UHGV virus genome: UHGV-0137934
Length of the DNA stretch: 53,703 nucleotides
Source: a virus
Strand: one strand, 5' to 3'
The notes under the pieces are model-generated. The model did no database searches and had not been told where the DNA came from. It saw nothing but the letters and a program-made list of their open reading frames with translations. The position numbers and the translations under genes were made by a program. Shown piece by piece: positions 653-13,116 of this stretch. Every line of letters starts with the position of its first letter. Positions within the stretch are counted from its first letter, which is position 1.

Positions 653-1918
653 TCATCTGACCTGAAGCAAATCACTGTATCTAGTGGTATAGCGTGGAGA
701 AAGCATTTCTCGCTGCATTTGCCATGCGGTCTGGATTCCCTGCCCTGCAAAATAGAGCGTCCCCCTGCCATCCTTCGCGTTGAGGTGGTCTAAAACTTCC
801 ATCAGTTTCTCACTGTTCTGCCGCGGTGCGTTGTCATCGAAGAGGTTAAGCTGCGCTACGCCCTGGCTGTAGAAATCACCCAACATTACTCCTGCTTTCT
901 GGTAGCGATGCCCGTCTCGCCATATCATGTCGAGGCATTTCGTCGCTGCGGTGATTATGTCCCTACTGTCCTGTGTTGGAGTCAACAGCTTTACTGATGC
1001 GCTGTTTCCGTAATATGGCTCGTTAAGAGCAAAGGGGCTGGTTTTAACGAACGCTGAGATAAAGCGGCAATACTGGTGCTCACCACGAAGTTTCTCCGCT
1101 GCGCGCGAGGCATAGCTGCATATTGCCTGCCTCATCTCATGATATTCCGTGATACGCCCACCGAAAGAGCGACTGCAGACTATTTCCTGTTTTACGGGCG
1201 CGAACTCCTCCAGACCGAGACAAGGCTCGCCACGCAGTTCCCGCACGGTTCGCTCCAGAACCACATTGAAATGCTTCCGGATAAAACGGATATCCGTATC
1301 TGCAAGTTTTAACACTGTGTCTATCCCCATAGACTCCAGTTTTTTACTGATACGGCGCCCAACGCCCCATACTTCATCAACCGGCAACAGCGCCATTAAC
1401 TTCCTCTGCCGTTCCATATTCGACAAATCAACTACGCCTCCAGTCTGCCGCTGCCACTGTTTCGCTGCGTGATTGGCCAGCTTCGCCAGAGTTTTTGTCT
1501 GGGCTATGCCAACACCAACCGTGAGGTGCGTCCGGCGCAGAACCGTCTCGCGAATTTCCCGGCCAAAGTCGGTAAGGTCGCGACAGTTACGAACTCCTGT
1601 CAGATCGCAAAATGCCTCATCGATACTGTAAATTTCGCATCGTGGAGAGAGCTCTTCAAGCGTAGTCATGACCCGGTTCGACATATCCGCATAGAGCTCA
1701 TAGTTGCTACTAAACGCGATAATGCCGTGCCGGCGGAACATTTCCTTTTGTTTAAAGTACGGCTCCCCCATTTTGACGAACGGCTTTGCCTCTGCGCTAC
1801 GTGCAATCACACAGCCATCGTTATTGGAAAGGACGACCACTGCACGCCCTTTCAAGTCAGGGCGAAATACGGTCTCGCACGATGCGTAAAATGAATTCAC
1901 ATCACACAGGGCGAACAT
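653..1918 (-). CDS. umuC: DNA polymerase V catalytic subunit UmuC (Y-family translesion polymerase)
   Basis: 421 aa ORF; matches remembered E. coli UmuC along full length (MFALCDVN.FYASCETVFRPDL ... SIDEAFCDLTGV ... RYTTR..DLL.V); start 3 nt after umuD stop. Confidence 0.95.
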   Translation of the reverse strand: MFALCDVNSFYASCETVFRPDLKGRAVVVLSNNDGCVIARSAEAKPFVKMGEPYFKQKEMFRRHGIIAFSSNYELYADMSNRVMTTLEELSPRCEIYSIDEAFCDLTGVRNCRDLTDFGREIRETVLRRTHLTVGVGIAQTKTLAKLANHAAKQWQRQTGGVVDLSNMERQRKLMALLPVDEVWGVGRRISKKLESMGIDTVLKLADTDIRFIRKHFNVVLERTVRELRGEPCLGLEEFAPVKQEIVCSRSFGGRITEYHEMRQAICSYASRAAEKLRGEHQYCRFISAFVKTSPFALNEPYYGNSASVKLLTPTQDSRDIITAATKCLDMIWRDGHRYQKAGVMLGDFYSQGVAQLNLFDDNAPRQNSEKLMEVLDHLNAKDGRGTLYFAGQGIQTAWQMQREMLSPRYTTRYSDLLQVR

Positions 1919-1919
1919 C

Positions 1920-2339
1920 TCAGCCAGCCGCTTTGATGATAAATGTCACAACACCGAATACATCCAGCGTGTCCTCGCTTCCCACGACGATTGGTGAATA
2001 TGCGGGATTCATTGGGTTAAGCTGAACGCGTGGATGTAGTTGCAACTTCTTAACGGTGAATTCCCCGTCCACAGCGGCAATCACGATATCACCATGAACT
2101 GCGGTTCTTGAGCTATCCACGACCAGAAGATCCCCCTCTCCGATCCCGGCGTCCTTCATGCTGTCGCCCGCAGCTTTGACAAAATATGTCGCGCTGGGGT
2201 GGTTAACTAGCAACTCGTTCAGGTCGATGCGTTGCTCAACATAATCCTGCGCAGGACTCGGGAAACCACACTGAACAAGGTCGCTGTACAACGGAATCAG
2301 GATGATTTTGCGTAACTCAACGGGCGTGTAGAACTGCAT
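1920..2339 (-). CDS. umuD: UmuD, LexA-like S24 self-cleaving accessory subunit of Pol V
   Basis: Matches remembered UmuD ([26 protein letters not shown] ... GDSM ... [19 protein letters not shown]); ORF track extends to a GTG at 2354 but ATG at 2339 fits UmuD length. Confidence 0.9.
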
Positions 2340-2359
2340 GATAGACTCGCTCACATAAA

Positions 2360-2827: not shown

Positions 2828-3379
2828 TCATCCCGTTACTGGCAGATATTTATAGATAGTCTTCACCCCTACACCTATCACATCGGCTATCTGCTGGCGT
2901 GTAGCTCCGTTCTCCAGCATCCGGCGGCCTCGTTCCACAACTTCTTCGGTCATAACCCGGCGGCGGCCACCGATGCGCCCCTGCTCCCTTGCCGCTGCTA
3001 AACCGGCGCGGGTACGCTCGACGATCAACTCTCTTTCCATTTCCGCCAGTGCACTCATGACGTGGAAGAAAAAACGTCCTGCTGGCGTACTGGTATCGAT
3101 GCTGTCAGTCAGGCTTCGGAAATTCACCCCGCGCGCCTGCAGCTCTGATACCAGAGTGATCAGGTCACGCACGCTTCGCCCCAGCCGATCCAGTTTCCAG
3201 ACCACCAGCACATCACCCGGTCGCAGCCGCCGCAGCGCACGCTTTAGCCCTGGTCTCCGGGCATTCTTTCCGCTGGCCGTATCTTCGAAAACCAGCTCAC
3301 ATTCTGCGCGGATCAGCGCATTTTTCTGTAAATCGAGGTTTTGATCCCCGGTTGACACCCTGGCATAACCAATCAGCAT
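2828..3379 (-). CDS. serine recombinase, Hin/Gin/Pin/Cin-family DNA invertase
   Basis: 183 aa; N-terminal MLIGYARVSTGDQNLDLQ catalytic-serine motif, C-terminal HTH; adjacent to tail-fibre genes as in Mu Gin and P1 Cin. Confidence 0.9.
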   Translation of the reverse strand: MLIGYARVSTGDQNLDLQKNALIRAECELVFEDTASGKNARRPGLKRALRRLRPGDVLVVWKLDRLGRSVRDLITLVSELQARGVNFRSLTDSIDTSTPAGRFFFHVMSALAEMERELIVERTRAGLAAAREQGRIGGRRRVMTEEVVERGRRMLENGATRQQIADVIGVGVKTIYKYLPVTG

Positions 3380-3422
3380 GATGTAACCCTTTGAAATAGC
3401 TGATTGTAAAAAGCTCCGGTCT

Positions 3423-3473
3423 TTCGCTCAAACCCTCGTTTGCGCGAAGCCTCTTTTTGGAGCAAAAAACATG
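3423..3473. repeat. left inverted repeat of invertible segment; contains 26-bp hix/gix-like crossover site (3423-3448, core CT 3435-3436)
   Basis: TTCGCTCAAACC-CT-CGTTTGCGCGAA imperfect palindrome; 49/51 nt identical to reverse complement of 9980-10030; includes RBS and ATG of gene at 3471. Confidence 0.75.
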
Positions 3474-5426
3474 GCTGCAGATCTGAATCCGCCGCTGGGT
3501 ACGACGACGCCTGAAATCTTTTTAGATAACGTTAAGCGGGCCGATCGGTTAGTGAACGGGCCGGAGGAAACGGTAAACGATCGCGGCGGGGAACCGCTGG
3601 ATACCTGGCGTCAGATGATGGCGAAAAATGATGATGTCAGGCAGAACATCATTCCGCTGAGTCGCCAGTACATGACGCTTGATACGGCCCAGGCCGATAT
3701 CGTCAATATCCCGGAGGGCAGCACAACCTATGTGCGCAGTTCTGATGATGCTTATCTGGCTATTGAGTACAAAAACACTGGAGGCGTGCTGCAACCTACA
3801 GGAAGAACCATGATTTCAGGAAAGACTGCCGTAAGACGTACAGATGAATACTCTGACGGAGTTAATTATGCCTGGGGAAAGGTTATGTCCAGCGGGGAAA
3901 TACTTCCGGGTACTCTTCAGGGAATGGACGGATTGCCAGCGCCTGAAAACGTCGCAGCATACGCTGCCAAAGGTGTGGCGGTCTATCAGCTTAATCCCGC
4001 AGATATTCCGGCAGGACATGCGATTATCAAAGACGGCATTGTTTTGCTGGAAGCTGACCAGTCAGGGCGCCTTAATTACCTGCCACCGCTCAATCGTCGC
4101 GCGCGGCAGTCGGTGAATCAACGCCCTGAAATGGTCCTCACGCCGCTACCCGCATCAGTACGCGCGGCAGTCGAACCACTCGCCGAGCGTGCCTGTAAAT
4201 ACATGCTTTCAACGTGGGTGCCGACATGGGTTCCCCTGGCTGGCGGAACCGGGCTTCCAGCCACTGGCTCGACGATGGACAGCATAGAGCAATACCCGCT
4301 GATGCTGGCCGCAGTAGTTCACTGGATAAGCTGGTGTGATGCCGGTTACGCGGCCTGGGATGAAACGTTTATTGGCGTCAGTTATGACACTGCCGTTTCC
4401 TGGATTGTTCAGGGGCTGGATTTAGTGGTAAGTGCGCATCTGGCAAACGGTGGTTGGTGGGGAGGCCCGCCGCCGCCGTGGAGCGAAGCCTCTGAAGAAG
4501 TGGCGGTAACTTTCGGCTCACAGGCGGCAGAGCTGGCGCGTAATGTGGCCAGCCACTGCGACCTGATGGGCGCACACCTGACGGCAGCCCAGAAAACAAA
4601 AGTCACCGCAATGGTGGTGCATGAGGCTAACCGCTTTGTGAAGTACACGCCCAAATACCGCTGGACGCGCCCGGATATCCGGGGGCAGGTGACGGATAAC
4701 TACCCGACAGGCGATTCCAAATCAGAAGAAATCGCCTGGAACCTGGCTATCCTCGCCCGTGCACTGATTTTAGCCCCGGATAATGCCAATGCTGAGCGCT
4801 GGGCCGAGCGGCTGATTACGATGCAGATTGCGGCGCTGGGTGACAGAAACGACCTGTCCGAGACGATGACGATTAACGGGCTGGCTCCCTGCGATGTGAT
4901 GAACGGGACAAACGTTAACCCGACCCGCCTCGTTGAAAACCACGGGGTTGCTGATGGGCAGGATGTGTCCCGCTGGTACACGATGGCGTCATTGTCAGGT
5001 AGCGAGTGGATGTTTCGCACCTTCCTGCTGGCCGGGAAGCCAGTGCCATCGGCAGCCCTCTGGCATATGGCCGACACCATGCGGGCGCTGGCCTACAACC
5101 CGGATGGTTCGGTGTGGAGCATGGACTGGAGGGAGCCTGTCGGCGAACTGTCCTATGCACCGGCGATTGCCTACATGTTTGCCGAGCCGCGTCAGGACTA
5201 TATCGATACGCTGTTGCACCGCCTGGCGATTTTTGCCGGGCAGCAGGACGACACTACCGGGGCGCTGCCCGCCGGGGCGTTTAACTGGCCAGTCTATGGT
5301 TCTTCCCAGCCCGGCGAATTCCTGAGTTACATCCGTATGTCTGACCGCATGCAAAACCCGCTGACCTGTCCGCGTGCCACCAATACACATTACACCAGCC
5401 TTGCCGCTATTTACCGGAGCGTTTAA
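3471..5426 (+). CDS. receptor-binding tail fibre/tailspike protein, cassette A (currently in non-expressed orientation)
   Basis: 651 aa; N-terminal about 50 aa homologous to N-terminus of ORF 6320..9982; divergent C-terminal domain; lies inside invertible segment. Confidence 0.7.
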   Translation: MAADLNPPLGTTTPEIFLDNVKRADRLVNGPEETVNDRGGEPLDTWRQMMAKNDDVRQNIIPLSRQYMTLDTAQADIVNIPEGSTTYVRSSDDAYLAIEYKNTGGVLQPTGRTMISGKTAVRRTDEYSDGVNYAWGKVMSSGEILPGTLQGMDGLPAPENVAAYAAKGVAVYQLNPADIPAGHAIIKDGIVLLEADQSGRLNYLPPLNRRARQSVNQRPEMVLTPLPASVRAAVEPLAERACKYMLSTWVPTWVPLAGGTGLPATGSTMDSIEQYPLMLAAVVHWISWCDAGYAAWDETFIGVSYDTAVSWIVQGLDLVVSAHLANGGWWGGPPPPWSEASEEVAVTFGSQAAELARNVASHCDLMGAHLTAAQKTKVTAMVVHEANRFVKYTPKYRWTRPDIRGQVTDNYPTGDSKSEEIAWNLAILARALILAPDNANAERWAERLITMQIAALGDRNDLSETMTINGLAPCDVMNGTNVNPTRLVENHGVADGQDVSRWYTMASLSGSEWMFRTFLLAGKPVPSAALWHMADTMRALAYNPDGSVWSMDWREPVGELSYAPAIAYMFAEPRQDYIDTLLHRLAIFAGQQDDTTGALPAGAFNWPVYGSSQPGEFLSYIRMSDRMQNPLTCPRATNTHYTSLAAIYRSV

Positions 5427-5428
5427 TC

Positions 5429-6196
5429 ATGACCCTTGAAGTTGTTCCTGGAAGCCTGACCAGTCCCGACCCTTCCATTAAAAACTATGCCCCCTACGCT
5501 CCCGCTATTGGCGTGACCGGTTATACCGACCGCTGGCGTCCGGCGCTGGATTTTTCAGCCAGCATTACGGGAGACGCCGTTATCGCTTATCCGAGTCCCC
5601 TGGTGCCGGATAATGTTTTGTCGGGAAGCACAACGAATCCGCCAGTCATTGTCGATCAGTCTGGTGTTCGCATGGTCGACTGTGCCACAACAGGAGCGCT
5701 GGCAGCGCTGACAGACATTAACCGTAAGTTCGGTGACGTCAGTTTGCTGGCGGTATGGTATGAAGTACACGGCTCCGCATCCCACTCCATTCTGACCATC
5801 GGAGGATTGCGGTTCAGCCGGGCAAGCGCCAGCTGGGGTCTGTCCAAAATGTCCGGCGCTGCAGGGACAACACTGAGCATTTCCAACGATCCGGCTGCCG
5901 GAGGTGTGGCTATTTCCGCACGTCGCTATGCCGCTATTCTGACTATCCCTGCTGACAGCGCAGCCGCCGTAACGTTGCGCCTGATTGGTGCGGGCTCATC
6001 CGCTGTTAGTGTTTCTGGCATTATCACCCGCGGTGGTTCTGCAGATGAACAACGTCGGTTGCGGTTTGGTAAAGATTCGGGAGGCTCATCTAATACCGGA
6101 CCGCAGTTTGCCGAAATGGTTATCTGGGAGCGTCTTTTGACAGCGCAGGAAATCACAACCGTTTCTACCTATACAGCCAACATTTATACCCTATAG
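5429..6196 (+). CDS. hypothetical protein co-transcribed with cassette A fibre (possible fibre chaperone or second fibre subunit)
   Basis: 255 aa ORF starting 3 nt after fibre A stop; Ala/Gly/Ser-rich; no recognised motif. Confidence 0.45.
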   Translation: MTLEVVPGSLTSPDPSIKNYAPYAPAIGVTGYTDRWRPALDFSASITGDAVIAYPSPLVPDNVLSGSTTNPPVIVDQSGVRMVDCATTGALAALTDINRKFGDVSLLAVWYEVHGSASHSILTIGGLRFSRASASWGLSKMSGAAGTTLSISNDPAAGGVAISARRYAAILTIPADSAAAVTLRLIGAGSSAVSVSGIITRGGSADEQRRLRFGKDSGGSSNTGPQFAEMVIWERLLTAQEITTVSTYTANIYTL

Positions 6197-6319
6197 TCCA
6201 TTCAGGAACACATCGCGGCCGCCATGAAAATTGATAGCCGCAACTATTCCACGATCCCCCGGTAACCTTGTAAATAGTTACCGGGGTAGTCAGGCTCCCG
6301 GACCTTGCATATCTCCTGA

Positions 6320-9300
6320 TTAAGAATTGGTGACGTTCTCTAAATCCAGCTCATTTTCCTTAACAATGTTGTCTCTGGTGATGGTGCTGGCCATGTAGTC
6401 AGCGCTCGCCGCGGACATGCCTTTTGCATTGCCTTTAATGATGCTGTCTTTGAGGATAGCATCTGTTAACTGGGCACTGATCCCGATCCCGTTCTGACCA
6501 TTATTCAGAAGCATGGCGCCCCGAATAATGACGTTTTCCGCCGCATTGCCAAGCTGGATACCGCTCCCGCCATTTCTGGAGAAAGAGCCACCATTAACGG
6601 AGACCTCCCGAATCGGAGTTGTGACATTTGTTGCCGCAACAACCCGCAGCCCGTGGCTCTCGTTGTCTTCTGAAATGCAGTTATCGAGGTAATATCCGCG
6701 CGCATTATCACCGATTTCAGCGTTAACATAGTCTGCCGTTTTATACACTGCAAACCCGTTGCCGTTTCCGAAGCCCATCTGACGAGGCGTGAAATAGGGA
6801 TTCTGAATCTTGCTGGTCCCGTTTTCAATCGCCTTGCAGTCAGAGAATACGGCATTTATGCCATACCGGACCTCGCCAACCTGGCTACCATTATCGGCGG
6901 CGAATCCGTTCAGGTTGCGGTATGCCGTGCAGTTAGCATAGGAAAGGCCATTACAGCCAGCGTTACCGAAGCCAACCGCATTGCCTTCGCTATAGCAGTT
7001 CGTAACGTTAACACCCACCGGGAAATCGCCGATGATTGTTTCTCCGCTACTCTCCATGTGGTTGTGCCACTCGAAGAACATGCCGTGACCATAGTTATTC
7101 CGGTTAATGCAGTTCATCACCTGAATCGGCTCCCGTCCTGCGCGAAACGCGCCTACCCCGATCCCCATCCCGGCACAGGACCCATCCTGTTTATTCTGCC
7201 CGCAACCCTCTGTCACGATATGATCCAGCACGCCGGACATAATCATGTCCACTCCGAAGCCGGTTATCGCTGATTTATAAATCCAGATATTTCGGGCTAC
7301 GAAATCCTTAACGTACTCCATATTAATCCCACGACCCGCGCGAGAGCTGAGAATGTCCAGATTAAAGCCCAGGTTTTCGAAAGTGATTTTTTCGTAAACG
7401 TGATCGCTTAACTTCTCATTTTTAAACGGAACGTCGGCGCCGCAAATAATCGTGTTGTACATCCCGTCGCCGTAGATGTGGTTGAAGCTCTTGATGTAAC
7501 AGCCGGAGATTTTATACAGCCCACTTTCCATATAAACCTTGCCGCGTTTCTGGCGCTCCATTTTCAGGCAGAGCTTTTGAAGCAACGGGGTGTAATCATA
7601 AGCGAGGGTTTTATCGGGTCGGCCTGCCAGGTCATATAATTTATAAACCGGCTCCGAGAGTTCCAGAAAGGCTCTTTCACCTCCCCGACCATTTACCAGC
7701 ACGTTGAATGCAGTGGAGTCCCTGCGCCCGTCAGACACATGCGAAATCCCGACGTAAGCCACATCGTCTGATGTGAACAGGTCAAGCAAAGTGGACGTGT
7801 TAATGCCCGTGGTCAGCGTCTCAACGGAGAGAACACCACGGTTACTGTCCAGTCTGGCCATATACATGTAGGTGTTACCTGCGGCATATGACAGCGTGAC
7901 TTCTGCATCTTTGGGGACTGCGGCGCGGTCAAAAAGGTACGTAACCGCCGTAGGAACAGAAACTAACGAACCCGCAGCATCATAGGCCAGTCCGGGGTAG
8001 ATATCGCCGTACGGATTCGACGCCGGGCCTTTAATAAAAAAGGAATCATCTTCTGTGGTACTGAAGATAACGACCTCAGGATCATAAAGTCCGGTTGCTG
8101 AATAGTTGTTAACGGCGATAAACCCGTCTTCTTCAATCAGCGCACAGGCGTATCCGTAGTAATTGTTATTAACATAGGTAAACTGCAGCGTGCTTCCAAG
8201 ATATTTGCCGATTTTGTTATATCTGGCGCCCATAAACAGTGTAGCGCCTGCATTCGTCGAGTTTTGCACTGTCCTGGCTTTCACATAATCGCCAGCCTTC
8301 ACAGGGATAAGCGCCGTGCTCATGTAGTTTACATTCGAATCCACGCGGCCTGAATTACCGTTCGACCGCACAACTCCCACTTCCCACGAATCGGCAGGGT
8401 AAGTGTACTGTTTGACCCTGGAGCCAACAGCATACTTACGCTTACGAATAAAGGCAGGAAGACTGCCGTCGGTCATATATGCGGTGACATATATCGTGCA
8501 GGCCTCAGTGGCGGTATACAGATGCTCGGTGTAGACAGAGCCCGCTTTGAAAGCAAAACTGATCGGCTCAAATACCCCCTCAGAAATATATTTAGAAAGT
8601 ACAGGCAAGCCATATTTAGCGGTTAAGGCATTTGAGTTTAAATTTACCCTGGCAAAAACAGATTCCCCGGCCTCCAGTTCAACGACATACAGCTTCTGGT
8701 ACAGGCTGGAAACCAGCGCGCCCGCCATGGAAATGTACTGATTGGGAATGATTGTCGCCGTTGCTCTGGCGTTAATGTCGGCGTAATAAACATCCGTGAC
8801 TTTATTTTCAACCAGATTCTGTGTGCTGGGGACGGCAACATCAAGAGCAGAATCCACTTCACGGCGTTTAATTAGCCCTGCTGAAATAGAGTAGCTGGAG
8901 TCCCGCGCTGCCGTGGATAAAATCGCAGTGCTTAAAGACAGTACGATGTACCCGTCGGTTGGCACGGAATAGCTATACTCTTTGATGCTTTCAGCGCCGT
9001 TGCCGATCACGCCCTCGACAAAAGACGCAGCCGAATGGCTGGAGAAAAACGCAATGGCATAGCCTGAAGACGGCAGGGCCAGACGGGCTGAAATAATACT
9101 CCCCACCGTAACCTTAATGAATCCCGTATTAAAACTGGTTGCAGATACCGTAGGGTAAGAGGTTGGCGCGCTTACGCTCACGAATCCATTATTCGGGAAT
9201 GCCTCTGCACCGCTGGCGGTCACGGCCTCACCGACAAGGGTATTTATCGCGGTTTCAAACGTCTCGAATGAAGTATAGCCACCGGCTTTATCGCTGTTAT

Positions 9301-9982
9301 CCACCGTCAGCACGTCTTTGATCACCTCACAGGCGAATGTCTGTGACGTTGCGATGCGTGTTGCCAGAATAATAAAACCATCCGCGGGGACAGCAAAAGT
9401 CCGGGTGTAAGCCTCAGGCCCGACCCCGACATTCTCGGCAGAAATAAACGTTTTGTCCTGATCGTAAAACGCAACGTTTGCGTAACTGGCGCTGTTATTC
9501 GCCGCCGTCAGTTTAAGCTGCTGGCCCTTAGTAACCGCAATATACGTTGAGTTCCTCCAGTTAGCCGAAGATACCCGCGAACCATCAGCTTTAACGATGT
9601 AGTTTGAACCGGTCAGGTCACTGAGAACGGCCAGCGGGGTAGAGCCTATAAGGCCATTGATGTAATCGACGATTTGCGCGTTCTGATACCCGGCTTTGGC
9701 CCATGCCGTCCCGTTCCAGAGGTACAGCGTCCCGGTTGCCGTGTCCATCGCCAGTGTGTTGGGTTCTGACGGCGTAAAGGCCAGTAATTCCGCCGCTGAT
9801 GCAAACCCCATCGCACCGCCCGCCGCTTTTAGTCTCGCTATCGCCTGACGCCAGGAATCCAGCGGCTCACCTTCGCGGTCGGGAACATCAGCAGCGGGGC
9901 CATTCACCAGCTTATCCAGGCGCTCGGCGTTATCGAGCAGTACCGCAGGAGAAGTGCTCCCCAGAGGAGGATTAAAGGCCAT
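6320..9982 (-). CDS. tailspike/tail fibre with right-handed beta-helix (depolymerase-like) C-terminal region, cassette B (currently in expressed orientation)
   Basis: 1220 aa; N-terminus MAFNPPLGSTSPAVLLDNAERLDKLVNGP homologous to cassette A; C-terminal Gly/Asn-rich repeats typical of parallel beta-helix polysaccharide-degrading tailspikes. Confidence 0.75.
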   Translation of the reverse strand: MAFNPPLGSTSPAVLLDNAERLDKLVNGPAADVPDREGEPLDSWRQAIARLKAAGGAMGFASAAELLAFTPSEPNTLAMDTATGTLYLWNGTAWAKAGYQNAQIVDYINGLIGSTPLAVLSDLTGSNYIVKADGSRVSSANWRNSTYIAVTKGQQLKLTAANNSASYANVAFYDQDKTFISAENVGVGPEAYTRTFAVPADGFIILATRIATSQTFACEVIKDVLTVDNSDKAGGYTSFETFETAINTLVGEAVTASGAEAFPNNGFVSVSAPTSYPTVSATSFNTGFIKVTVGSIISARLALPSSGYAIAFFSSHSAASFVEGVIGNGAESIKEYSYSVPTDGYIVLSLSTAILSTAARDSSYSISAGLIKRREVDSALDVAVPSTQNLVENKVTDVYYADINARATATIIPNQYISMAGALVSSLYQKLYVVELEAGESVFARVNLNSNALTAKYGLPVLSKYISEGVFEPISFAFKAGSVYTEHLYTATEACTIYVTAYMTDGSLPAFIRKRKYAVGSRVKQYTYPADSWEVGVVRSNGNSGRVDSNVNYMSTALIPVKAGDYVKARTVQNSTNAGATLFMGARYNKIGKYLGSTLQFTYVNNNYYGYACALIEEDGFIAVNNYSATGLYDPEVVIFSTTEDDSFFIKGPASNPYGDIYPGLAYDAAGSLVSVPTAVTYLFDRAAVPKDAEVTLSYAAGNTYMYMARLDSNRGVLSVETLTTGINTSTLLDLFTSDDVAYVGISHVSDGRRDSTAFNVLVNGRGGERAFLELSEPVYKLYDLAGRPDKTLAYDYTPLLQKLCLKMERQKRGKVYMESGLYKISGCYIKSFNHIYGDGMYNTIICGADVPFKNEKLSDHVYEKITFENLGFNLDILSSRAGRGINMEYVKDFVARNIWIYKSAITGFGVDMIMSGVLDHIVTEGCGQNKQDGSCAGMGIGVGAFRAGREPIQVMNCINRNNYGHGMFFEWHNHMESSGETIIGDFPVGVNVTNCYSEGNAVGFGNAGCNGLSYANCTAYRNLNGFAADNGSQVGEVRYGINAVFSDCKAIENGTSKIQNPYFTPRQMGFGNGNGFAVYKTADYVNAEIGDNARGYYLDNCISEDNESHGLRVVAATNVTTPIREVSVNGGSFSRNGGSGIQLGNAAENVIIRGAMLLNNGQNGIGISAQLTDAILKDSIIKGNAKGMSAASADYMASTITRDNIVKENELDLENVTNS

Positions 9983-10030
9983 GTTTTTTGCTCCAAAAAG
10001 AGGCTTCGCCCAAACGAGGGTTTGTGCGAA
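9980..10030. repeat. right inverted repeat of invertible segment; 26-bp hix/gix-like site at 10005-10030 (core AG 10017-10018)
   Basis: Reverse complement matches 3423-3473 at 49/51 positions; lies between stop of 10060..13116 and ATG of 6320..9982. Confidence 0.75.
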
Positions 10031-10059
10031 AAGAGTTAATAAGGGGTTTTTATGGGGTA

Positions 10060-13000
10060 TTAAGCGACGTCGCCGGGGTATGTGGCGTCGTCGTAGGCGT
10101 AGAAATCATCACGGTACTGACGGGCAGTCACCTGGCATGTACCATCGGATTGAGGCGCAATCTCTTCTATAATCGCGTCGTATGTCCTGCGTGAAGATGT
10201 GCAGAAAATCAGACGCGGCGGTTCGATATACGGATCATTTAATATGATCCCGTCAAACTCTGAGTCATATGGAACAGACAGCTGATAGTCACCAACCGCT
10301 GAGGCCACCAGCAAAGCGGAAGCCGAGCCATCCTGATAACGCAGGATTGCCCGTGGATTTTCAAATGACCAGTCGAGCGGCTCCGTAACCGTGAACGTTG
10401 TGACCCCGTCTGCTGTGTTCATTGCTTCAACAAGACAACTAATCGTTTTATTTCCAGGGATATCATCCGTCAGCAAAATACGATCCCCGTAATTATAACA
10501 AAGCGCGTCAAGCTCGGTCGTCGTTGAATAGTTACGCCGCTGCTTTTGATATTTCATCAGCCTGCGCATGCCTATCTGATAGGCGTGATCTCGGTTAAGA
10601 ACGCCGTCAAGTTCATAGTTTTCAACTTTAAAAGGTGTAGGGTTGCCAGGCATACGGCATTGCACCGTCTCTTCTGCCCACGTTGTACCGTTGATATAAG
10701 TGACATCAACGCCATCATAATCATCATCAGATGGCGGGGTGAAGGCTGTTTGCAGCTCTTCGGTCATTTCATGCGGGCTGATAACCCCGGTCCACGGCTT
10801 AACCCCTTCCCGCCCTACAGACGCCAGTCCATCACTCAGCAGGAAATAGGACCTCCCGGCATTAGCAATCTTCTGAAGCATTTCAAGGGCAGAGATACTG
10901 TCACCAGCAGCGAAATCGAAATACTCACCATTGGGTGTCCATACCGTGGTTTCCAGAAGATCAATGGCCTCAGTATCCATATCAAGTCCAAGCGAACCAC
11001 CAACATGATACAACGCACCTGAAATACTTCTTGCCGCACCTTTGTCATAAATTCGCGTTGCGACAACGTTCACTCGCCGATCAGACTGAGCGGCCAGCTT
11101 CCCGCCGGTTTCCACCGTCACCGCCAGAAGCGTAACGCCAGGATAAGATGCAGGCCGTGAAAGTAACCGCCCTCTCAATGCCTGCCAGTACATAGAATCA
11201 CGAGCATTGTTACTCCCTTGCTCGTTCCGGCGGCGACAACGAACTTCGACAAGGCCGGGAGTGCTGAGATCAAACCGTTCAGTAAATCCCAGGCCATTGA
11301 CGTTTTGCAGAGCATAAACGCCTTCGCGGCTGGCCCATCCGGCACCAGAACCATAAACGCGGTACTGAATTTCCCATTCACAATGGCGGATACGCTTTTT
11401 GCCTTTGTTGTCAAAACCGCAAATCCCGGAAGGAAATGAGAAGTTCACCTCGAAGGCGTCCACAACTTCATTTTCAGGACAAACAAGAAACGGCCCCATC
11501 CAGGTATTATTGTCGTTAATACCCGTAGCCTGATAATCGATCATCGTGCGCGGGGCAAACCCCAACCAAGAAGGATCAACAACACCTTCGACCACACGCT
11601 GAACCGTTGCTGTAGTACCGTCAGCATCAGCAATCCGATATTCGTTACCACGATGAGCCAGAGAAAGCCGCTGTGTCCCCTCCGGAATTCCCGAGAATGC
11701 CGCACCAGTTGCGCGACCATAAGCGAGCGTAACATTAGCCGTGATCGCAGGACTTCCACCACTTGAGGGCGTACCAGCAGTAAATTCCGGTGTGTCACCA
11801 AAAACAGAAACGGGGAGTGCTGATGATGTGATATTTCCGCCCCTCCACGGGCTGGATATTTCAACTATCCGCACAACACCGCCATCATCCTGAGCAACCA
11901 GCCCCGACCCCGTCAGCCCTTCATTAATTGCCGCCAGAAGTCCTGACATATTCAGATAATCAGCTACAAGGGAGACGGTGAAGGAAGTTGCATTCCAGGT
12001 TAAATCAAATGTCTGTCCCGATGTGGAAAAATCATAGGTTGTCGGTGCAGCATTTCCACGTACAGCAGCAGCACCTCCCCCGACACCAGGAACCGCATCC
12101 TGTTTTGGGGTATACGTTGCGATCACCAGGTCATATTCTGCACCGTTAATCTCCAGCGTGACTGGCATTCCGGCGGCTGGATTAATTTCCGCCAGCGTAT
12201 CGCTGGTAAGAACGCTATAACCCGATGAGGTTGAAACCAGATAATTGGTTGGCGCAACGATAGTTACAATAGTTCCCGTCACCCACGATTCTGGCAACGC
12301 ATTCCCTTCATCGTCATCATCGTTATCGTCGTCTAATCCGTTAAATGTCACCGATGCACCGGAAACAGTCATACTGTCAGCGGTGATGTCCGTTGAGTCA
12401 GGAGAGGTTTGAGCCATATCAAGGCCCGTCCCGCTTGACGTACCGCCCACTTCAGTCGAGTTGTACCAGTTTTCACTGCGACGATCTGCCGACACATCAG
12501 AGCCTGGTGGGTAAACATCATGGGAGAACGACTCCCCAAGCGCTGTGGTTGGAGTCTCGCCGACACGAATATCACCATTTGTGAACGCGACATTGCCAAC
12601 ACTCACGCAAAGGAGCATTTCCACACGCATGATCGTCGGGTCGTTCGGGTCAAAGCGAGTGACCGGTTGCACAACATAATCAGGGTATACACGATAGCGC
12701 CCGAATAATTCCCGGATGGGGTCACCCAATTTTGCGGTATTGGCTTTTGCCGGATTTAAATCAAGACCAGTGCCGCTCGATGAAGAGTATCCGCCTTTGT
12801 CCATATTGGACATTGTGATCAAAACATAAACAGCTGAGGCAGCAGCAATCGCCAGCGCCGCCCATGCTGCAACGGCAGCAGCCGTTGCGAAGGGGACCGG
12901 ATAAATTCGAACATCACTTTCAGGTTTGATAAAGCAAAGTGGCCACTCATGAGGAGGAACGTTAATGCCCCCCACTTCAACCGCAATCGGATGTTTTTCC

Positions 13001-13116
13001 TGCTCCCGATACTCTTTTACATTCTTTACCATCCATTCATGAAAGGACATCGCGCCATGTTCGTGGGTTTCCAGCGGCTCACCAGGCAGGCGGGACGGGT
13101 AAAATCTGATGGTCAT
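10060..13116 (-). CDS. large tail tip/hub protein (central fibre or host-specificity-type protein)
   Basis: 1018 aa ORF immediately downstream of NlpC/P60 gene in tail module; hydrophobic Ala-rich segment near N-terminus; Asp-rich stretch. Confidence 0.6.
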   Translation of the reverse strand: MTIRFYPSRLPGEPLETHEHGAMSFHEWMVKNVKEYREQEKHPIAVEVGGINVPPHEWPLCFIKPESDVRIYPVPFATAAAVAAWAALAIAAASAVYVLITMSNMDKGGYSSSSGTGLDLNPAKANTAKLGDPIRELFGRYRVYPDYVVQPVTRFDPNDPTIMRVEMLLCVSVGNVAFTNGDIRVGETPTTALGESFSHDVYPPGSDVSADRRSENWYNSTEVGGTSSGTGLDMAQTSPDSTDITADSMTVSGASVTFNGLDDDNDDDDEGNALPESWVTGTIVTIVAPTNYLVSTSSGYSVLTSDTLAEINPAAGMPVTLEINGAEYDLVIATYTPKQDAVPGVGGGAAAVRGNAAPTTYDFSTSGQTFDLTWNATSFTVSLVADYLNMSGLLAAINEGLTGSGLVAQDDGGVVRIVEISSPWRGGNITSSALPVSVFGDTPEFTAGTPSSGGSPAITANVTLAYGRATGAAFSGIPEGTQRLSLAHRGNEYRIADADGTTATVQRVVEGVVDPSWLGFAPRTMIDYQATGINDNNTWMGPFLVCPENEVVDAFEVNFSFPSGICGFDNKGKKRIRHCEWEIQYRVYGSGAGWASREGVYALQNVNGLGFTERFDLSTPGLVEVRCRRRNEQGSNNARDSMYWQALRGRLLSRPASYPGVTLLAVTVETGGKLAAQSDRRVNVVATRIYDKGAARSISGALYHVGGSLGLDMDTEAIDLLETTVWTPNGEYFDFAAGDSISALEMLQKIANAGRSYFLLSDGLASVGREGVKPWTGVISPHEMTEELQTAFTPPSDDDYDGVDVTYINGTTWAEETVQCRMPGNPTPFKVENYELDGVLNRDHAYQIGMRRLMKYQKQRRNYSTTTELDALCYNYGDRILLTDDIPGNKTISCLVEAMNTADGVTTFTVTEPLDWSFENPRAILRYQDGSASALLVASAVGDYQLSVPYDSEFDGIILNDPYIEPPRLIFCTSSRRTYDAIIEEIAPQSDGTCQVTARQYRDDFYAYDDATYPGDVA

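Follow-up and report, generated by a model that had tools for sequence, protein, structure and literature searches.

The 53,703-nucleotide viral genome UHGV-0137934 (here called the window, meaning the whole stretch of DNA that was analysed) carries a 6.6-kb segment, positions 3423 to 10030, which, to judge from assembled sequences, inverts in natural populations by reciprocal exchange at the core of its crossover sites. The segment holds two convergent cassettes, each with a complete receptor-binding protein gene, and a Gin/Hin-family serine DNA invertase is encoded beside it. We propose that this temperate Klebsiella siphovirus has a Gin-type inversion switch, by which one of the two complete receptor cassettes is docked behind TipJ, the fixed gene that closes the tail operon, and we assign this account as a whole a probability of about 0.82. 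The system is a variant that extends the textbook switch of phages Mu and P1, with an intercistronic crossover and no constant coding part. A preliminary description of the locus, drawn from the sequence alone, had already put forward such an exchange of whole genes.

From left to right, the window contains a umuD/umuC-like pair, the invertase gene, open reading frames (ORFs) of 651, 255, and 1220 amino acids (aa), and the TipJ gene. The three cassette ORFs had been delimited correctly in the preliminary description. Cassette A, on the plus strand, consists of the gene for the 651-aa receptor-binding protein (3471..5426) and, beginning two bases past it, the gene for a 255-aa partner (5429..6196). 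A gap of 123 nucleotides (nt) then precedes the convergent cassette B, a single minus-strand gene (6320..9982) for a 1220-aa receptor-binding protein of the beta-helix (tailspike/depolymerase) type. In the window, cassette B stands behind TipJ and is presumably expressed, and cassette A faces the invertase and is presumably silent. TipJ, a gpJ-family tail tip protein (10060..13116, minus strand; PHROG 469 “tail protein,” E 9e-277; Pfam FNIII-A_GpJ and Phage-tail_3), closes a long minus-strand operon of tail and head genes, and a 77-nt intercistronic gap within this operon separates its stop codon from the start of the receptor protein. The crossover sites had been assigned to 5′ untranslated regions; their position outside the gene stands, but they are better described as lying in this intercistronic gap.

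The segment is bounded by inverted repeats whose arms, as delimited by a repeat finder, span 3422..3475 and 9978..10031. They are 54 nt long, 96% complementary (52/54), and separated by 6502 nt, which essentially bears out the 51-bp repeats (49/51 identical) reported before. Each arm is made of a 26-bp gix-like crossover site, a 22-nt spacer with a GGAG ribosome-binding site, and ATGGC. The left site occupies 3423..3448 on the plus strand, with its central CT at 3435-3436, and the right site occupies 10005..10030 on the minus strand, with its core at 10017-10018, 29 nt past the TipJ stop codon; the limits first proposed for the segment, 3423 and 10030, are the exact outer ends of these two sites. 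Read from the outside to the inside, the left site is TTCGCTCAAACC CT CGTTTGCGCGAA and the right site (the reverse complement of 10005-10030) is TTCGCACAAACC CT CGTTTGGGCGAA. Both are imperfect palindromes, inverted to each other, that share the central dinucleotide CT and differ at site positions 6 and 21. Their half-site TTCGCNCAAACC aligns with Mu gixR (TTCCTGTAAACCGAGGTTTTGGATAA). The spacing is 22 nt from the left site to the ATG at 3471 and 22 nt from the right site to the ATG at 9982, close to the 23 nt estimated earlier, and the ribosome-binding site and start codon fall within the repeat, as had been noted. A scan of all 53.7 kb of the window allowing up to 3 mismatches found these two sites and no others, with 0 matches in 100 shuffles. 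No third or cryptic site, as in Min or the shufflons, was found at this threshold, and a 17-nt partial match at 7600-7616 was rejected as a crossover site.

Inversion is documented by three assembled contigs from one accession series. L005 (ERZ27234499) and L006 (ERZ27234496) agree with the window at every position over 13,426 nt (100%), and L004 (ERZ27234502) has flanks identical to the window with 3422-10031 reversed between them; in L004, the genes for the 651-aa and 255-aa proteins come after TipJ, and the gene that faces the invertase is that for the 1220-aa protein. The TipJ-side site of L004 reads TTCGCACAAACC CT CGTTTGCGCGAA, and its invertase-side site reads TTCGCTCAAACC CT CGTTTGGGCGAA. 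Compared with the window, the outer half-sites (3423-3434 on the left) stay with the flanks, and the inner halves travel with the cassettes. Because site positions 6 and 21 are swapped in L004, the exchange maps to the 14 nt around the central CT (window 3429-3442). This interval lies 29-42 nt upstream of the ATG and hence outside the coding sequence, in agreement with the preliminary description.

Both orientations, as anticipated, are found repeatedly in assembled contigs and also in independent genomes. Among the 24 contigs looked up that encode exactly the 651-aa protein, approximately 14 are oriented like the window and approximately 7 are inverted. In two pairs of NCBI genomes (L138/L145, beside thrS-infC, and L139/L144), the same cassette pair occupies the same chromosomal site in opposite orientations. 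The genomes of these pairs carry an identical invertase protein, and the inner polymorphisms move with the cassette in both pairs, the exchange interval in L138/L145 being 45 nt. Other records point to mixed orientations within single samples. In L007 (1-6644), the invertase flank stands at either end of the segment; in the isolate genome L084 (7797-14515), it is the TipJ flank that recurs at both ends (100% over 216 nt); and L008, a 6596-nt contig present in 10 samples, corresponds to window 3429-10024 and ends at the polymorphic positions in both sites. As palindromic chimeric assemblies, L007 and L084 are errors in public records, yet they carry the signature of mixed orientation. Separately, the docked 1359-aa cassette of L144 (CP172777, 1945-6023), which is intact and distal in L139, is split into ORFs of 360 and 989 aa, which may mean that a receptor gene has suffered a frameshift while in the expressed position.

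The enzyme that would catalyze the flip is encoded at 2828..3379 on the minus strand, outside the segment and reading away from it. The earlier assignment of this 183-aa protein to the Hin/Gin family agrees with its Pfam matches (Resolvase, E 4.7e-50, plus HTH_7), with PHROG 125 “DNA invertase” (E 3e-86), and with the solved Gin structures 4m6f and 3uj3, which match residues 1-180 (E 1e-71); the alignment takes in the MLIGYxRVS motif and its nucleophilic serine. The N-terminal motif containing Ser9, MLIGYARVSTGDQ, is kept in 41/41 relatives, so that the catalytic serine, which the preliminary description had singled out, is intact in the homologues. Differences among relatives are mostly below 0.1 at non-synonymous positions versus 0.2-0.5 at synonymous ones, and the invertase is thus under purifying selection.

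A candidate invertase promoter was found by consensus scan at 3403..3431 on the minus strand. Its −35 hexamer, TTGAGC (3426-3431), lies inside the outer half-site and is separated by a 17-nt spacer from the −10 hexamer, TACAAT (3403-3408). In 19 distinct site-to-ATG regions of relatives, TACAAT is invariant, the −35 hexamer is TTG(A/T)GC, and the spacer is variable, which is the pattern expected of a real promoter. This promoter would presumably let the invertase repress itself.

A candidate recombinational enhancer covers nt 19-102 of the invertase gene (3278..3361, minus strand), a position homologous to that of the Cin enhancer, which the P1 record annotates at nt 19-90 of cin. Pairwise comparison of 26 distinct invertase genes gives a synonymous difference rate of 0.21 for codons 7-30 versus 0.40 for the remaining codons, a contrast that has no formal probability attached, these sequences being related. 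The lowest of 159 windows of 24 codons starts at codon 11, and codons 1-8 are unremarkable. These rates indicate a constrained DNA element where the enhancers of the family lie, and an enhancer is likely. The distal Fis-like 15-mer common to Mu and P1, GCGCAGAATGTGAGC, is found at gene nt 71-85.

In the mechanism that we propose, by analogy with the known switches, the serine invertase would recombine the two inverted 26-bp gix-like sites (3423-3448 and 10005-10030) and flip the 6.6-kb segment, most likely assisted by the enhancer in the 5′ end of its own gene and possibly dependent on Fis. Each cassette opens with the inner half-site, which is followed by a ribosome-binding site, a start codon, and an anchor of its own of ~50 aa; no promoter is evident. 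Transcription of the tail operon would continue across the 77-nt gap, with the docked cassette as its last part, and the protein encoded there would be mounted on the virion; the distal cassette, facing the invertase promoter region, would stay silent. Inversion would then switch expression and host range, and a lysogen population would release phages with either of two unrelated receptor-binding proteins, whose receptor specificities probably differ. The TipJ-proximal position seems to be the working one, because in L003 (strain 2020S09-154) a 651+255 cassette, 88% identical, is docked directly after TipJ in a genome with no invertase and no second cassette.

The likeness between the 651-aa and 1220-aa proteins is confined to residues ~3-50, of which 29/48 (60%) are identical (E 1e-16), as expected from the earlier statement that the large proteins share their N terminus alone. 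This anchor of ~50 aa is common to hundreds of Klebsiella proteins (72-88% identity), whose C-terminal parts include SGNH/GDSL hydrolases, sialate O-acetylesterases, and beta-helix/pectate-lyase, CotH-type, and TolB-like domains. Such a distribution is the pattern of a modular mount for interchangeable receptor-binding enzymes. In the 651-aa protein, the N-terminal ~120 aa have matches in numerous PHROG families, “tail fiber protein” among them.

For the three cassette proteins, Pfam gave no match even at E 10, except for a sub-threshold Laminin_G_3 hint in the 255-aa partner, and a PDB sequence search with them returned nothing useful. The beta-helix label that the preliminary description had given to the 1220-aa protein rests on homologues, which support it. 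Indeed, proteins 69-98% identical to it are named right-handed parallel beta-helix proteins, and PF13229 matches residues 1092-1210 of a homologue that is 69% identical, the window sequence itself having no Pfam match. The AlphaFold model of the 255-aa partner (pLDDT 85.6) has a ConA/LamG-like beta-sandwich (lectin) fold, and its top PDB fold match is the tailspike chain 9vyh_p of cyanopodophage Pan3 (E 5e-9), followed by clostridial neurotoxin lectin domains. The partner gene is always found together with the 651-aa gene, and on its predicted fold its product resembles a component that binds carbohydrate, not a chaperone of the Tfa type. The 651-aa protein itself, beyond its N-terminal anchor, is predicted to have a helical C-terminal domain; Foldseek matches to PL-5 alpha/alpha-toroid polysaccharide lyases (E ~0.1) were treated as a mere hint.

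The closest known system is Mu G/Gin. The invertase is a close relative of Gin, the 26-bp sites align with gixR, and the invertase gene has the same place in both systems, next to the segment on its outer side and pointing away from it, at 67 nt in Mu versus 56 nt from the core here. Moreover, two convergent host-recognition cassettes are docked in turn behind fixed tail genes, and in Mu the docked half alone is expressed. However, the Mu boundary lies 509 nt inside gene S, so that the alternative fibers share a constant N-terminal part, and in P1, too, the crossover is inside gene S, with a long constant Sc part. The contrast with Mu and P1 drawn in the preliminary description is thus upheld: here, no coding sequence is shared, and each cassette brings its ribosome-binding site, its start codon, and its own diverged anchor. 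In addition, the window represents a lambda-like siphovirus with a TipJ tip rather than a myovirus, and its cassettes encode large enzyme-type proteins (a beta-helix; a helical domain with a lectin partner) rather than Mu-type fibers with Tfa chaperones.

The P1 C/Cin system, along with e14 Pin and p15B Min, resembles the present one in invertase family and purpose, and the annotated cin enhancer lies where the invertase genes of this lineage show synonymous-site constraint; in contrast, cin reads towards its segment, and cixL overlaps the 3′ end of cin. Min of p15B has six sites, compared with two here, and the R64 shufflon yields many arrangements with a tyrosine recombinase, whereas two sites and a serine enzyme are found here. 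Salmonella Hin belongs to the same serine invertase family, with 26-bp sites and an enhancer inside the invertase gene. In the Hin system, however, a promoter is flipped, hin lies inside the segment, and a fixed gene is turned on or off, whereas the promoter side stays in place here, and it is complete genes that change position.

The same arrangement is present in KPP5665-2 (MF695815), a published Klebsiella phage with an invertase (GP23), a 650-aa GP22, a 252-aa GP21, a 1220-aa GP20 facing them, a TipJ-type GP19, and the same site pair. It is ~84% identical to the window in the invertase and site region, and its two 26-bp sites are identical, with a diverged adjoining spacer. Its genome announcement makes no mention of an invertible segment or of alternative receptor proteins. 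The prophage fiber cases listed in a systematic survey of programmed inversions are of the Mu type only, and a hotspot survey reports invertases beside inverted fiber genes in P2-like phages. A full-text literature search found no earlier description of a whole-gene switch; subscription journals were outside its coverage, and this absence is no proof. KPP5665-2 shows that the switch is present, unremarked, in a published phage and is not a one-off.

The spread of the system among relatives was followed in two samples. The first was obtained by scanning IMG/VR for the site (at least 120 stretches). Among the IMG/VR matches listed, every site adjoins an anchor-bearing gene, from the TipJ end or from the invertase start, and the distance from the start of the site to the ATG is 46-49 nt in 21/21 two-site loci examined. 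Since this sample had been chosen by site, a second one was drawn by TipJ homology alone. Nineteen of its loci have 9 kb or more of sequence after TipJ: 13 of them combine a complete invertase with a second inverted site, 4 retain nothing of the invertase but a remnant, and 2 lack it altogether. The invertible form is the usual state of this large prophage lineage and probably the ancestral one, and “locked” phages are its decay products. Because the invertase remnants begin at many different residues, from 13 to 143, they stem from separate deletion events, in which the distal cassette and its site were lost along with the 5′ part of the invertase gene.

Across all remnant loci, 17 of 20 keep a perfect TipJ-side site. 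The kept site after TipJ in the invertase-less relatives (L148-L226 set) could reflect recent decay, the action of invertases from co-resident prophages, or a role in the tail transcript. In L024 (7025-7050) and L081 (2602-2627), where TipJ is divergent (55% identity) and the invertase is reduced to a remnant, the center of the TipJ-side site is flipped, with GAGG for CCTC, between perfectly palindromic halves; ordinary inversion cannot yield this center.

The cassettes are extensively re-paired. When receptor proteins are clustered at ≥70% identity over ≥80% of their length, 36 two-site loci contain 42 clusters in ~29 pairings. The same cluster is found on either side of the segment, with different partners, and one identical invertase protein accompanies at least 8 different cassette pairs. 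Most relatives have a partner gene, of 230-460 aa. Hosts of the system are Klebsiella, including other species, Raoultella, and E. coli; an E. coli chromosome shows the same layout, and ~84% identical matches occur in 47/5426 complete E. coli genomes. At the inner (3′) ends of the cassettes, there is no site and no element common to all, and the homology between relatives stops a few bases from the stop codons. Cassette exchange by site-specific recombination at both ends was rejected on this ground, and the sites alone therefore cannot explain the re-pairing of single cassettes. A more far-reaching possibility is that the gix-like site, which is present at the TipJ boundary of essentially every relative, even where the invertase is gone, is a lineage-wide portable junction, at which the invertase of a co-resident prophage, acting in trans, would join sites of different phage genomes and move whole receptor modules between phages. 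We regard this as speculative and improbable; if true, receptor modules would pass between phages somewhat like an integron for host range.

Stenotrophomonas records also contain parts of the module: an S. maltophilia record encodes a 58% identical homologue of the 255-aa partner, and the invertase gene of Stenotrophomonas phages BUCT708 and BUCT709 is 81% identical at the DNA level. This suggests either that the module reaches beyond the Enterobacteriaceae or that host labels are wrong. In a 1095-nt record filed as Streptomyces sp. NPDC088196 (L016, NZ_JBFBIU010000098.1), a Klebsiella-phage TipJ end, the site, and the anchor are found, with 76-88% protein identity; this record is almost certainly a contamination.

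The main rival to a specificity switch accepts the inversion and denies its consequence. Both cassettes would be expressed from their own promoters and both proteins mounted, and the flip would matter little or would have a different function, for example in tuning the expression of the invertase. Klebsiella phages with two receptor proteins or depolymerases are well known, the silence of the distal cassette is something that we infer, and the segment has promoter-like matches inside it, though at chance frequency (8 versus 6.6 expected), and no terminator between the cassettes. However, the anchors of the two proteins are homologous (60% identical), so they probably compete for a single docking site, and locked relatives retain the TipJ-proximal cassette and lose the other, which fits a situation in which only that position is functional. 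In addition, a consensus scan found no promoter-like match pointing into the distal cassette from the invertase side, and the layout mirrors that of Mu, with its expression of the docked half. We therefore disfavor the expression of both cassettes and consider it unlikely.

The question of transcription between the cassettes concerns the 123-nt gap, in which two hairpins (6216..6287) can be drawn: a GCGGC...GCCGC element at ~6216-6244 and an 11-bp stem at 6257-6287, with no T tract and a fold z-score of −2.3. They are possible transcription stops. The GCGGC...GCCGC element is conserved 3′ of the 255-aa gene in L003, L141, and KPP5665-2.

A second rival attributes the inversion to RecA-dependent homologous recombination between the 54-nt repeats, the invertase being irrelevant or inactive. 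A repeat of this length, identical at 52/54 positions, could support rare homologous exchange, and an exchange interval (14 nt here, 45 nt in L138/L145) by itself names no enzyme. Nevertheless, the repeats are short for RecA, and in the window lineage the exchange took place within a 14-nt stretch between mismatches rather than in the longer, 32-nt identical stretch, which would be likelier for homologous exchange. Furthermore, the two sites are built like gix sites and share one and the same asymmetric core, and in KPP5665-2 the sites have remained identical while the adjoining spacer diverged. The purifying selection on the invertase and the retention of Ser9 in 41/41 relatives also argue against an idle enzyme, and we judge this explanation very unlikely. 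As for assembly errors at the inverted repeat with no biological inversion behind them, repeats are classic places of misassembly and the chimeras L007 and L084 show that assemblers struggle here, but this explanation is hardly credible in view of a 54-nt repeat far below the final k-mer of the k141 MEGAHIT contigs and below typical reads (as inferred from contig names), so that every junction should have reads across it, of the opposite orientations at the same chromosomal site in independent NCBI genomes (L138/L145, L139/L144), and of chimeras and contigs breaking at the polymorphic site positions, which a truly mixed population would give.

Several points weigh against the proposed switch or parts of it. 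Orientation was read from assembled contigs. The silence of the distal cassette is argued from an absent consensus promoter match, and the terminator scan between the convergent cassettes flagged no canonical terminator, so that antisense read-through is possible. The enhancer anticipated in the 5′ end of the invertase gene is matched by the synonymous constraint and by the distal Fis-like 15-mer, but the proximal Fis-like 15-mer of Mu and P1 is altered here (GTGTCAACCGGGGAT, with a GC-rich center), which makes Fis dependence uncertain. The AlphaFold model of the 651-aa protein is poor (pLDDT 54), its helical domain spanning roughly residues 228-625. Finally, the perfect sites in 17/20 invertase-remnant loci are not explained by the simple model.

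Beyond the invertase, at the prophage end, the window encodes a umuD-like S24 peptidase and a umuC-like Y-family polymerase (653-2354, minus strand). This pair accompanies the invertase in every relative seen, in Klebsiella and in E. coli, and gives the impression of a conserved cargo module for SOS mutagenesis that is tied to the switch.

The host range of Klebsiella phages is set largely by receptor-binding enzymes specific for capsule or O-antigen types, and a narrow range is what chiefly hampers phage therapy and does much to control how genes flow among clones. A common temperate phage family of Klebsiella, Raoultella, and some E. coli holds two complete, unrelated receptor proteins and alternates between them by inversion, and a single prophage sequence would understate its host range. 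Serotype prediction from prophage depolymerases must consider which cassette is docked, and assemblies will often break or turn chimeric at the switch locus. With the crossover in the intercistronic gap, no shared coding segment is needed, and any protein with a compatible anchor of ~50 aa can be a cassette, a freedom that fits the large repertoire of 42 clusters. The intercistronic switch also points to a simple scaffold, offered by nature, on which phages with switchable receptor proteins could be engineered.

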